The notes under the pieces were generated by a model, which was given only the letters and a program-made list of their open reading frames with translations, was not told the origin of the DNA and did no database searches. Both the position numbers and the translations under genes were made by a program. DNA of 64,000 nucleotides from Vulcanimicrobiota bacterium (lineage in GTDB: Bacteria; Vulcanimicrobiota; Xenobia; Xenobiales; JADMJV01). Below, one piece after another: positions 60,810-63,608 of this stretch (the first letter of the stretch is position 1; each line of letters begins with the position of its first letter). Location: positions 3,076,891-3,140,890 of the forward strand of contig JBFWNU010000001.1 in assembly GCA_050250895.1 (NCBI GenBank). The letters run 5' to 3'.

Positions 60810-62123
60810 CTAGTCTGAATCTCGCAGCCGGGCTCGAACGGCCAGCACCACCACCAGCAGCGGCAATCCCAGCAACACCACGAAGCTCATGACGATGTGC
60901 AGGACCTGACCGGCCGAGAGGGCATAGCCAGCTCGGACCACGTTGCGCCAGGCCCAGGCGGCCCCGCCCAGACAGAGCAACAGCGTCCCGATTTGAGCCG
61001 GGGTCGGCCGTTCGACCGAGAAGTGAAACTGACGCACTTTCTGCGTGAGCCTGGTCAAACGACGGCCGGCGGCCTCGAACAGCCAGCCGGGCCGGCGCCA
61101 CTCGAGCAGCCCCAACCCGACCGGGATGGCCGCCCCCAGGGGAGCGGTCAGCTTGACGAAGGTGGTCAAAGCGAAGCTCACCACCGCCAGCGGCAATCCC
61201 AGCAAAGCGGCCGGCTGCTCGAGCACGCTCTGATAGCAATGGATCGCCCAGGAAAGGGCCACCGCCGAAGCCACGAGGCCAAGCCAGCCCAGAGCTCTGG
61301 CGAGCCATCCAGGGGGAGGATTGGCGCTCACCACCACCTGGGCGATGGCCGTGCCCATGGCCAGGGCCCAGACCAGCTCTGAGCCCGACACCAAACCCGC
61401 CAGGGCCAGCCCTACCACCAGGGGGAGCCAGCCGCGTCCCAGTCCGATGAGCAGTCCCGCCACCCCGACCACCAGCAGGCCCTGGGCCAGCACGCGGTTG
61501 AGCGGCCAGGGCCGTCCCGAACCGCCGAAGAAGGCGATGGCCCGGCCTAGCAAATAGGGATCGAGGGTCTCGCCCGAGTGGTCGCAATAGGGTGAGAGCA
61601 CGACCGGGCCGGCTTGCTGGAGTTCGTTTAAAGAGTGGACCTGATCCCAGGCTCCCGCCCCCGCCAGGAAGTTCTCGGTGCCGGGCTCGACCGGAAAGCC
61701 GAAGGCCACCACCTTGCCAAAACCAGGACGTTGAGCCAGATTGAGCACGAGGTCCGCCCCCATGGAATGTCCTAGCAAGTGGCGGGGCGGCTCGAAGCTC
61801 AAGCCTATCTGCTCGAGCTGCTCGACATAGGTGTAGAAATCCTCGCCCGGGGCCAGATGCACGGCCACCCCGCGAAAGCCCCCCTCGGCCATGGCTCGGG
61901 CCGCCGGCAGGGCCGTGTCTCTGCCTTGAAAGACGGAATGGACGCACAGAATCGTCCCCCGAGGCGGACCGGCCGGCTCGAAGACCGTGACCGGAACCCC
62001 GGCCAGGCTGGCCTCGTGCCCGGCCGGACCGGGCCGCAGCAGGCCGGCCAGGCCAAGCAAGATCAGCAGGCCGAACCCAAGATGCTGCCAGCGCATAAAA
62101 AAAAATTGCTCGTCAGTGAACAT
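60810..62123 (-). CDS. alpha/beta hydrolase domain fused to a multi-TM membrane domain
   Basis: GHSMG nucleophile elbow; many C-terminal TMs; start 62123 or about 62096. Confidence 0.7.
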   Translation of the reverse strand: MFTDEQFFFMRWQHLGFGLLILLGLAGLLRPGPAGHEASLAGVPVTVFEPAGPPRGTILCVHSVFQGRDTALPAARAMAEGGFRGVAVHLAPGEDFYTYVEQLEQIGLSFEPPRHLLGHSMGADLVLNLAQRPGFGKVVAFGFPVEPGTENFLAGAGAWDQVHSLNELQQAGPVVLSPYCDHSGETLDPYLLGRAIAFFGGSGRPWPLNRVLAQGLLVVGVAGLLIGLGRGWLPLVVGLALAGLVSGSELVWALAMGTAIAQVVVSANPPPGWLARALGWLGLVASAVALSWAIHCYQSVLEQPAALLGLPLAVVSFALTTFVKLTAPLGAAIPVGLGLLEWRRPGWLFEAAGRRLTRLTQKVRQFHFSVERPTPAQIGTLLLCLGGAAWAWRNVVRAGYALSAGQVLHIVMSFVVLLGLPLLVVVLAVRARLRDSD

Positions 62124-62164
62124 TTTGCCTGCCTGAGTGGTCTATAATCTGGAGGCCGAGCACG

Positions 62165-62446
62165 ATGACCAACGAGACATATCAGCAGCTTCAACTTCTA
62201 GCTGACCAGGTGGTGGTTGGTCTCGACCAGACCTTCAGAATGCCCGGGCGCCGCAAGCGCCCCCTGGGCCTCGCTGTGCTGGCCCGGCTCGCCGTGGACC
62301 ACGACCTGGCCGCTTCACCTTCGGAACTCGAGCAAGCCCTCGACCGGGCCGCGCGCCGTCGCCATCGTCCCCATACTCGCTTGCTGGCCTGGGTTAGCCG
62401 GGCGGCGGCTGCCCTCTCGTTGTCTTTCTGGGCGCTCAGTCGCTAA
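62165..62446 (+). CDS. hypothetical protein
   Basis: GGAGG SD; ends just before the terminator hairpin. Confidence 0.55.
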   Translation: MTNETYQQLQLLADQVVVGLDQTFRMPGRRKRPLGLAVLARLAVDHDLAASPSELEQALDRAARRRHRPHTRLLAWVSRAAAALSLSFWALSR

Positions 62447-62479
62447 TAAGGAAAGAGGCACCCAGCTTGGGGTGCCTCT
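62445..62479 (-). terminator. intrinsic terminator closing the putative ncRNA (possibly bidirectional)
   Basis: 10-bp stem agaggcaccc/gggtgcctct followed by TTCCTTATT on the minus strand. Confidence 0.7.
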
Positions 62480-63575
62480 CGTTCCCGGCCGCCTCCACTC
62501 CAGCACCGGGATCCCGATATCGCTTGCGCGTCGGGCCACGTCCCTCTTTTATCGCAGTAGAGACTCTGCGGTCTACTTCTTTTGGCGTTGTGGACGCCGC
62601 GGCATCTCAGTAGTTCCGCTGCTTGGCCGCCATCCTCTCCTGCACCAAGCTCCCGTGGTCCGCCTTGCCGGCATCGCTGAGTTGCCTCATCGACCTTTCC
62701 CCTCGCGGGTCCGGCAAGTGCGTCGGGCCTCGCTTCGAATGTCCTCAGACGAAGCGCTGCGCATTGCTCAGGTGTGTATGCTACCCCTGTCATCTTTTGG
62801 CTGTCGCCGCGGCCTTTTGACAGTTCCGCTCTCGCCTTTCGACGCTCTCGCGCCCGGTGCGAGCTTCCAACCCTCGAGTTCCGCGCTCGTCGGTGTGATC
62901 GATGCCTCGATCCCGTTTGTCCAGTCGGCTCTGGGCGCTCTCAGGTCTGAACGCAACCCCTGCTCCTATATGCGGCTGAGCAGTTCCGTCCCTGGCCGCC
63001 ATCCACTCCTGCACCAGGATCCCCGTGTTCCGCCTTACCCGGCTGCGCTTCGAGGTTTCGTTGCGCTCTTTCTCCTCGCGGTTCCGACTGTTGGCTTTGG
63101 GGCCTCGTCCCGACACCTGATCGGGACTTCGTACACTCTTAGGGTGGGTGTTCCCCTGTTCTCTTTCGGCGCTTAGCTTCGCCACGGCGTTCGAACAGTT
63201 CCGCTGCCTTTGGGTTAACCCGTCAGGCTGCATCTGGTCACCGATACATCTCGACTGCCGGTCGAGTCGGGCGTTCTAGGTCTGAACGCAACCCCGCTCA
63301 GCATTTGACGTCGCGGAACGTCACGGCGTCTGAGCGATCCGTTGCCTGGCTTTCGCACCAAGCTCACCAACACACTAACCTCGGCGCAGCTCAAAGTTAC
63401 CTTTGCGCGTCTTTATCCTCGCGGCTCCGAGAGAGATGTTGGTCTTGCCTCGCATGTCCACCCGAGGCGGTGGAGGCACCTGGTCTGTGCCCTGCCCTGA
63501 CATTTGCTCTTTCCGAGCGGGTTGCCAGCCCCTCCGAGTCTCACGCTCCTCGGGGCGGCTCCGTGACCGGAACAT
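62450..63575 (-). ncRNA. putative large (about 1.1 kb) structured non-coding RNA with internal tandem modules, family not recognised
   Basis: Consensus promoter and terminator boundaries; many GNRA hairpins on the minus strand; repeated modules with compensatory pairing; no credible ORF. Confidence 0.65.
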
Positions 63576-63580
63576 TAATT

Positions 63581-63608
63581 ATTATACCCACGATGACGTT
63601 CCTGTCAA
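63581..63608 (-). promoter_or_regulatory. perfect-consensus sigma70 promoter
   Basis: Minus strand TTGACA (63608-63603), N16, TATAAT (63586-63581) in a GC-rich genome. Confidence 0.85.

Follow-up and report, generated by a model that had tools for sequence, protein, structure and literature searches.

A probable large noncoding RNA of Xenobia composed of concatenated structured blocks of two kinds

To our knowledge, very few bacterial noncoding RNAs longer than 500 nt with an elaborate conserved structure have been described. The OLE, GOLLD, and ROOL RNAs form protein-free homo-oligomeric assemblies through A-minor contacts and kissing loops, according to a recent account (Kretsch et al. 2025, PMC12286853). 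Here a 64-kb stretch of the genome of a Vulcanimicrobiota bacterium (contig JBFWNU010000001.1, positions 3,076,891 to 3,140,890; hereafter the window, to which all unqualified coordinates refer) was analyzed, in which the minus strand between 63574 and 62447 very probably (at roughly 85%) holds a stand-alone gene for a structured noncoding RNA of ~1.13 kb. The RNA would belong to an undescribed family of the Xenobia (Eremiobacterota/Vulcanimicrobiota) and consists of concatenated blocks of two kinds, A and B.

By analogy, OLE, GOLLD, and ROOL appear to be the closest known RNAs in kind. Like them, this RNA is large, stand-alone, lineage-restricted, and apparently abundant, with a covariation-supported fold of many helices that includes pseudoknots and many A-rich and GNRA elements; unlike them, it matches no Rfam family, occurs as six dispersed paralogues per genome, and was not found in viral contigs. 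Its internal A-B-A triads would be a further difference, as OLE, GOLLD, and ROOL are not known to have internally repeated blocks. The CsrB/CsrC and RsmX/Y/Z sponges are likewise stand-alone genes with their own promoter and terminator, a many-times repeated unit, and several paralogues per genome, but the units of this RNA are ~100-nt pseudoknotted domains, the RNA is 3-4 times longer, and CsrA does not co-occur with it. Several H-type pseudoknots are also arranged serially in tmRNA (PK1-PK4), from which this RNA differs in having neither a tRNA-like domain nor a tag reading frame; no RF00023 match was found in the window, and the genuine tmRNA of the host genome lies at G000:C3:741155-741536 (180.6 bits). 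Replacement of a housekeeping RNA was considered and rejected, the genome having an ordinary RNase P RNA and tmRNA. Tandem aptamers, such as those of glycine riboswitches, share with this RNA a head-to-tail series of ~100-nt homologous structured domains in which the cores are conserved and the stems covary; there, however, two aptamers are found rather than ten blocks of two kinds, and the present RNA has no regulated gene or expression platform downstream and no Rfam match.

The extent of the transcript, from ~63574 to ~62447, follows from a promoter at one end and a terminator at the other (Table 1). The -35 (63608-63603) and -10 (63586-63581) elements predict a start near 63574 and form the sole sigma-70-like site in 61800-64000, where shuffled sequences average 0.3. 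Both signals recur in all six paralogues of the host genome, the -35/-10 pair at the identical aligned position and the GC-rich hairpin with its T run at the corresponding position (6/6 in each case). An initial annotation, made from the letters of the window, had placed the RNA at 62484-63500; the region is real, but the gene is longer than this.

No Rfam 15 family reached its gathering score anywhere in the 64-kb window, the memberships tested including OLE, GOLLD, ROOL, HEARO, tmRNA, RNase P, and riboswitches. Over 62300-63750, a search at E ≤ 10 gave only six rows (E 1.8-9.9; 11.6-20.3 bits against gathering scores of 31-80). Open reading frames (ORFs) of some length overlap the RNA region on both strands, and the four overlapping ORFs have no Pfam match; among 21 homologues no ORF is conserved, with the longest frames varying in strand, frame, and position. 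The gene is regarded as noncoding because Rfam and Pfam matches are absent and the longest frames are inconsistent among homologues. With a noncoding transcript of >500 nt under its own promoter and terminator and a covariation-supported multi-helix structure, it would fall among the large ornate bacterial noncoding RNAs, a descriptive class that carries no homology. Literature listings on Eremiobacterota noncoding RNA, Xenobia/WPS-2, modular pseudoknotted bacterial RNAs, and metatranscriptomic large structured RNAs yielded no description; the motif-list supplements of the Breaker/Weinberg discovery papers could hold a fragment.

The block architecture was defined with two covariance models, R1 for block A (21 sequences) and R2 for block B (10 sequences of one subgroup), both trained solely on orthologues of the third-module copy and scanned against both strands of the entire window with filters off. 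The matches abut and tile the RNA as A-B-A / A-B-A / A-B-A / B, giving six A and four B blocks followed by the terminator, with triads of 291, 305, and 294 nt and linkers of 39 nt (63245-63207) and 70 nt (62901-62832). Besides the training rows, R1 gave five minus-strand matches in the RNA (E 6e-6 to 0.014) and R2 three (E 1.5e-6, 1.5e-5, and 0.37); the remaining rows at E ≤ 1 in the window were one plus-strand overlap within the RNA (E 0.13) and three scattered matches (E 0.49-0.82). The three to four tandem modules proposed in the initial annotation are thereby retained in a refined form, as two block types in three A-B-A triads plus a final B.

Table 1. Features of the RNA gene, in order of transcription
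Feature	Positions	Strand	Description
Sigma-70-type promoter	63581..63608	-	TTGACA, 16-nt spacer, TATAAT; 12/12 consensus
Whole transcript, noncoding	62447..63574	-	~1.13 kb, delimited by promoter and terminator
5' hairpin	63534..63553	-	CCGAG-(GAGCGUGAGA)-CUCGG, purine-rich loop; read from sequence and alignments
Block A1, leader-type	63445..63536	-	R1 21.2 bits, E 0.0036
Block B1, degenerate	63344..63445	-	R2 16.9 bits, E 0.37, weak alone; ends abut A1 and A2 exactly
Block A2	63246..63344	-	R1 28.0 bits, E 1.2e-4
Block A3	63105..63206	-	R1 29.9 bits, E 4.6e-5
Block B2	62990..63104	-	R2 47.4 bits, E 1.5e-6
Block A4, without inner GNRA hairpin H2	62902..62991	-	R1 33.9 bits, E 6.1e-6
Block A5, best-conserved A block	62730..62831	-	R1 95.3 bits, training row
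Block B3	62621..62729	-	R2 106.8 bits, training row
Block A6, partial, without H3 hairpin	62538..62621	-	R1 18.5 bits, E 0.014; alignment row L001:1599-1682
Block B4, truncated (outer helices and GGUGC helix only)	62483..62537	-	R2 41.8 bits, E 1.5e-5, 51 model positions skipped
Intrinsic terminator	62453..62480	-	11-pair hairpin, then UCCUUAUU

The repetition is also evident without the models. Three sets of motifs had been reported on the minus strand in the initial annotation, and a repeat search recovered them independently as families D2-D5. The first, CCGCGAGG (D3), occurs at 63424-63417, 63081-63074, and 62708-62701, with a spacing of 343 and 373 nt; the second comprises GGUGC helices (D2 and D5) at 63362-63345, 63018-62991, 62649-62622, and 62510-62484, with arms cuugg/ccagg, ccugg/ccagg, cuugg/ccaag, and cccgg/ccggg, respectively; and the third includes an 18-mer that is 100% identical at 63295-63278 and 62960-62943 (D4). 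The spacings of families D2-D5 are 343/373, 369, and 335 nt, and comparison of the RNA with itself by blastn gave off-diagonal matches at offsets of 334-373 nt (E = 4e-15, 2e-6, and 9e-5) and 508 nt (E = 6e-7). The internal repeats exceed chance. Tandem Repeats Finder returned 0 rows because the copies are old and too diverged.

In block A (~90-105 nt), GCGG and CCGC(G) pair across helix H1 to make an H-type pseudoknot, and an inner hairpin is often GNRA-capped; the 3' part contains GGGG, a hairpin with an ACC/CCU loop that may base-pair with GG(G)U upstream of it, and usually a further hairpin. In block A5 these elements are the GCGG/CCGC pseudoknot, H1, hairpin H2, GGGG, hairpin H3 (ACC loop), and hairpin H4. 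Block B (~100-115 nt) consists of long-range helices around a GNRA-capped hairpin and a variable hairpin, followed by a GGUGC...GGCGGCC helix. In block B3, helices H5a, H5b, and H6 enclose the GNRA hairpin H8 and the variable hairpin H9, with the GGUGC helix H7 thereafter, and block B1 contains a CGGAGCCGCGAGG GNRA hairpin and a short GGUGC helix with a GAAA cap, and copies of the first two motifs of the initial annotation lie within it. The H8 loop is of GNRA type in 62/67 metagenome copies and 23/28 genome copies, and that of H2, the inner hairpin of block A, in 29/55 copies. The stem of the 5' hairpin listed in Table 1 is GAG/CUC in this RNA but becomes GCC/GGC in paralogues P3-P6 and ACG/GUG or the like in relatives; it encloses a conserved AGCG(A/U)GAGA loop.

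A global fold from RNAalifold on the six paralogues was messy, and only local helices that can be checked by pair counts were used. In a plain MAFFT alignment of the core unit from 21 homologues (alignment A1), with 36 nested pairs drawn in seven helices, 97.9% of cells are paired compared with 30-47% when partners are slid, and 15 of the 36 pairs changed on both sides compared with 5.6 +/- 1.4 in shuffles. In the same 21 non-redundant homologues R1 found 67 matches, of which 21 are training rows, and R2 found 31, made up of 10 training rows, 11 non-training orthologues, and 10 internal copies. Among the 67 A blocks (alignment A4) every one of the 21 modelled pairs has substitutions in both partners, a single position showing as many as five pair types, and 94.0% of cells are paired (28-46% slid); among the 31 B-block copies (alignment A5) 23 of 26 pairs have such substitutions, with 93.4% of cells paired (27-47% slid). 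An independent set was provided by 88 R2 matches (82 distinct) from 74 of 80 metagenome loci, none of which had been used for model building (alignment A6); here 18 of the 26 pairs changed on both sides and 93.1% of cells are paired (27-47% slid), and a pair within the GGUGC...GGCGGCC helix is GC in 63 copies and AU in 10. The proposal of internally duplicated modules with compensatory stem changes is borne out by these counts. The accompanying view that structure rather than sequence was conserved needs refinement: the loop and junction sequences are conserved too.

Two pseudoknots were examined in the A blocks. In the first (PK1), the GCGG ahead of H1 and the CCGC(G) in its loop co-vary in the 67-row view (pair 4/22 is CG in 44 rows, GC in 8, and GU in 3), with GGGG/CCCC and GAGGG/CCCUC as leader-type examples; since the two segments change together, block A is an H-type pseudoknot. 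In the second (PK2), GG(G)U faces the ACC of the next hairpin's loop, both mostly invariant, and the flanking pair is A-U in 11 rows and G-U in 9. PK2 is likely to be the partner of the CCU loops, for which pairing with nearby GAGG/AAGG segments had been suggested; the most plausible partner, with modest support, is the GGGG/GAGG directly 5' of the loop's own hairpin.

Other candidate contacts were rejected or not supported. A kissing contact of H3 (loop CAGAC) with H4 (loop GUCUG) was rejected, as the H4 loop is invariant whereas the H3 loop varies without compensation. An H3-loop contact with the apex of the GGUGC helix was rejected as well, position 67 and the variable loop base showing no joint pattern in 21 rows; this variable base pairs locally with the base directly before GGCGG. 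A helix closing the 5' and 3' ends, suggested by P1-P3 (CCGGUC/GGCCGG, CCGACC/GGUCGG, and CCAGUC/GACUGG), is not supported as a general feature, with a crude duplex search giving 16.1 with own tails and 15.6 with the tails of other RNAs.

Compact pseudoknotted repeats, GNRA loops, A-rich joiners, and invariant bases are hallmarks of tertiary docking, and for this reason a self-docking architectural or scaffold RNA is favored, tentatively and at less than even odds. In such an RNA the chain would fold compactly, with the repeated blocks docked on one another through GNRA loops, A-rich linkers, and pseudoknots. The RNA would then be a multivalent scaffold, every repeat displaying an identical set of conserved nucleotides in its loops and junctions to a partner present in several copies or to further molecules of the RNA itself, and it would act neither by base-pairing with mRNAs nor by control of a downstream gene. 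A more specific form, in which the three linked A-B-A triads make a pseudo-symmetric protein-free nano-architecture, a single-chain counterpart of the ROOL and GOLLD homo-oligomeric cages, is speculative and rather doubtful. The six paralogues might co-assemble into mixed particles. In our ranking an aptamer array, a protein sponge, a processed array, and a ribozyme all stand below the scaffold reading. The last of these would make the complex conserved fold catalytic, and size, pseudoknots, GNRA loops, and invariant junctions do resemble those of large self-folding catalytic RNAs; it is nonetheless very unlikely, as no Rfam ribozyme or intron matched, no substrate or flanking exons are evident, and internal triplication of blocks is foreign to known ribozymes.

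The host genome (9.5 Mb, 63% GC) carries the RNA six times; the copies can be aligned over their full length and are 73-77% identical where blastn aligns them. They lie in unrelated neighborhoods, the next gene being convergent in 5/6, and neighbor genes are not conserved, with the largest cluster among 235 flanking ORFs holding 6 ORFs, mostly copies of one region. At E ≤ 0.05 all matches to the models in this genome (12/12 for R1 and 8/8 for R2, with 150 first-look candidates scored per run) fall inside the six full-length loci, and the window search found only two inverted repeats, neither of them terminal. Single modules scattered in the manner of a miniature inverted-repeat transposable element, which the initial annotation had named as an outcome that would speak against its proposal, were thus sought and not found; the confinement of all matches to six loci shows the RNA to be unlike such elements or repetitive extragenic palindromes. 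A mobile or selfish repeat, or a misread protein gene, could be imagined from the several copies in the genome and the long ORFs on both strands. Either has next to no probability, as each of the six loci has its own promoter and terminator, the divergence of the paralogues shows that they are not recent copies, none was found in viral contigs, and the overlapping ORFs are neither conserved nor matched in Pfam.

Relatives were detected by blastn in 10/15 other genomes of the same GTDB family, and an exact-pattern scan of species genomes returned 16 stretches, mostly from Vulcanimicrobiota or Candidatus Xenobia records. Of 32 extracted sequences, 21 remained as full-length homologues once duplicates were removed, and these measure 985-1564 nt. 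When the 45 non-training A blocks were compared with the blocks of other RNAs, the closest one occupied the same relative position in 35 cases, with position classes resting on thresholds set by the authors; the duplications consequently predate the six paralogues and the sampled genera. Internal duplication gave rise to the blocks before the paralogues, and the orthologues in other genera, diverged; compensatory substitutions have maintained them since.

Across the class, R1 matched at E ≤ 1e-5 in 18/44 genomes including that of the window; without it, the matches by family are f1 11/15, f2 5/5, f5 1/1, f3 0/19, and f4 0/3. In a sample of the phylum, 19/151 genomes matched at E ≤ 1e-4, all of them from f1, f2, and f5. 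Both scans were run under stricter filters, and absence denotes that the RNA was not found among the genomes searched. Matching genomes are 5-9.5 Mb in size, and the 19 f3 genomes, at 1.9-4.7 Mb, gave no match; among the genomes searched, the family is found only in the large-genome families of the Xenobia. In viral contigs there were 0 matches to a 34-letter pattern. A looser 17-base pattern gave 87 viral-contig matches, which were taken as chance, R2 confirming 0/80 of the loci returned.

Module models and a search for variation in copy number had been suggested with the initial annotation, and block number does differ among lineages. The RNAs of family f2 are shorter, measuring ~600 nt (L060) and ~740 nt (L059) from promoter to terminator, with three A blocks each and, in L059, a weak B-like block as well. 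This composition, three A blocks with a B-like match that is weak where present, would suit an array of aptamers, in which each A block forms a ligand pocket and the whole RNA serves as a multi-site sensor or buffer of a metabolite or ion. So would the A-block core (GCGG/CCGC, GGU/ACC, and the A-rich joiners), which hardly changes among 67 copies whose stems vary, the typical pattern of riboswitch aptamers. We consider such an array unlikely: the RNA ends at its own terminator with no expression platform or regulated gene, the next gene is convergent in 5/6 paralogues and no neighbor family is conserved, no Rfam riboswitch matched, and six unlinked paralogues in unrelated contexts misfit cis-regulation. 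On the same observations a cis-regulatory leader or tandem riboswitch is not supported.

The distribution of the RNA also bears on a sponge of the CsrB/RsmZ type, which would titrate CsrA or another global RNA-binding protein. Such a function would accord with a stand-alone, apparently abundant RNA with a strong promoter, repeated units, many GGA-containing motifs, and several paralogues per genome. However, CsrA (PF02599) was found in 7/44 genomes of the class; it is present in 5/18 RNA-positive genomes, the other 13/18 being without a match, and two CsrA-positive genomes are without the RNA, so that no co-occurrence was seen. The units are ~100-nt pseudoknotted folds with GNRA loops, unlike simple GGA hairpins, and the conserved apical motif is AGG-N-G-N-G rather than GGA. 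The repeated conserved loops read AGG-N-G-N-G, ACC, or GNRA, and GGA is frequent in the RNA by inspection. A protein sponge of this type is accordingly improbable; one for some other protein would overlap with the scaffold reading.

Expression was assessed by mapping contigs to 61800-64000, from one DNA run and from wastewater and sludge RNA libraries, three in number and drawn from two studies. Those of the RNA libraries share ~95% identity with the window and cover 62471-63563, with nothing outside 62466-63575, and two of them correspond to the RNA alone (988 nt, 62471-63456; 1033 nt, 62471-63502); contigs of the DNA run continue into both flanks. Scanned with a pattern, metagenome contigs yielded 117 stretches, 80 of which were returned as loci. 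The RNA covers ≥93% of the contig in 60/80 of these, 52/80 begin at the 5' end of the RNA, within 10 nt of a contig end (profile positions 1-25, with 21 at position 8), and 18/80 begin and end with the RNA (1273-1476 nt). As DNA assemblies are unlikely to break so often at both ends of a gene, many of these metagenome records are probably assembled transcripts. Collectively, these data argue for an abundant, discrete transcript. In a sequencing-run search all shares were ≤0.22. In RNA run X3, a contig of a close relative of the window had a depth of 888, and a different 432-nt contig, which matches only the conserved A5/B3 core (window 62690-62789), had a depth of 3907; another family member therefore seems to be more abundant in that library.

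The contigs are likewise relevant to the idea that the 1.1-kb transcript is a precursor cut into active unit RNAs of ~100-350 nt. The tandem repetitive layout with short linkers between the triads (63245-63207 and 62901-62832) would allow this, and the start of the RNA-only contigs some 10 nt past the predicted position could reflect 5' processing. Weakly against it, the 988- and 1033-nt contigs span all modules, and the 18 metagenome contigs described above begin and end with the RNA. A precursor array seems slightly less probable even than the protein sponge.

Several points weigh against the structured and self-docking RNA proposed here. The structure of alignment A1 was drawn from the same sequences, which favors it over the slid controls, although compensatory changes are still numerous, and alignments A4, A5, and A6 were fitted to models, which inflates their pairing percentages. 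The match of block B1 is weak (E 0.37), and those of A1 (E 0.0036) and A6 (E 0.014) are modest. PK2 consists mostly of invariant bases, is 76.5% paired, and has one pair unpaired in 42/67 rows, and the searches for tertiary contacts found nothing. The expression data come from contigs rather than raw reads, give neither strand, exact ends, nor level, and derive from RNA libraries that may contain DNA; they are consequently a hint rather than proof. The 5' ends of the RNA-only contigs correspond to 63563, which is ~10 nt further downstream than the -10 box would predict for the start; technical loss or processing could account for this. The lack of conserved neighbors means that genomic context gives no hint of function, and the proposed function is read from sequence.

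Earlier RNAs of this kind opened new structural biology, the latest case being GOLLD, ROOL, and OLE with their RNA-only cages and dimers (PMC12286853). The RNA described here is a new family, which adds a size class of 1.0-1.6 kb and a modular design by ancient internal duplication, from three A blocks in 600-740 nt to six A and four B blocks in 1.13 kb, together with a set of six seemingly expressed paralogues in each genome, in a lineage that has not been cultivated. As a natural experiment, the repeats bear on the growth and folding of large RNAs, and the ~100-nt well-defined pseudoknotted domains could be studied singly. That the RNA seems abundant in RNA libraries from the environment points to an important role in the cell. 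If the single-chain assembly were true, this would be the first bacterial RNA known to have built a large and ordered structure by duplicating its own domains, in the way of repeat proteins.

Around the gene in the window, a 93-amino acid ORF on the plus strand (62165-62446) is convergent on the RNA terminator, with its stop codon at 62446, and the next minus-strand gene (62123-60810) encodes 437 amino acids with several hydrophobic stretches; neither has a Pfam match. Directly upstream of the RNA promoter, a GC-rich hairpin at 63640-63702 (GGCAGCCCC...GGGGCUGCC) may be the terminator of a neighboring gene, and the chance Rfam rows mir-346 and F6 fall on it.

Elsewhere in the host genome, paralogues P5 and P6 (L003 and L004) lie 5 kb apart in the same orientation at G000:C2:138090-144190, with three ORFs between them. 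Just upstream of P4, at G000:C1:113938-114720, an open frame with three near-identical tandem repeats of ~55 residues is probably a ~165-bp DNA tandem repeat rather than a gene. Among relatives, a second complete or partial copy of the RNA stands head to head with the first in L020 (2746-3070), L046 (3008-3711), L062 (1364-2067), and L107 (5867-6570), and the starts of such head-to-head pairs are only ~100 nt apart. Records labelled uncultured Burkholderiales or Selenomonadaceae (L034, L044, L047, and L049) carry RNA genes 100% identical to loci from genomes placed in the same family as that of the window, and their labels look wrong. In P3-P6, GCAGTCAC / TCCAGTCAC forms a short direct repeat around the predicted start, within the first 20 nt past the -10 box, and the GUCACGG motif at the 5' end is the complement of CCGUGAC in the last A block.

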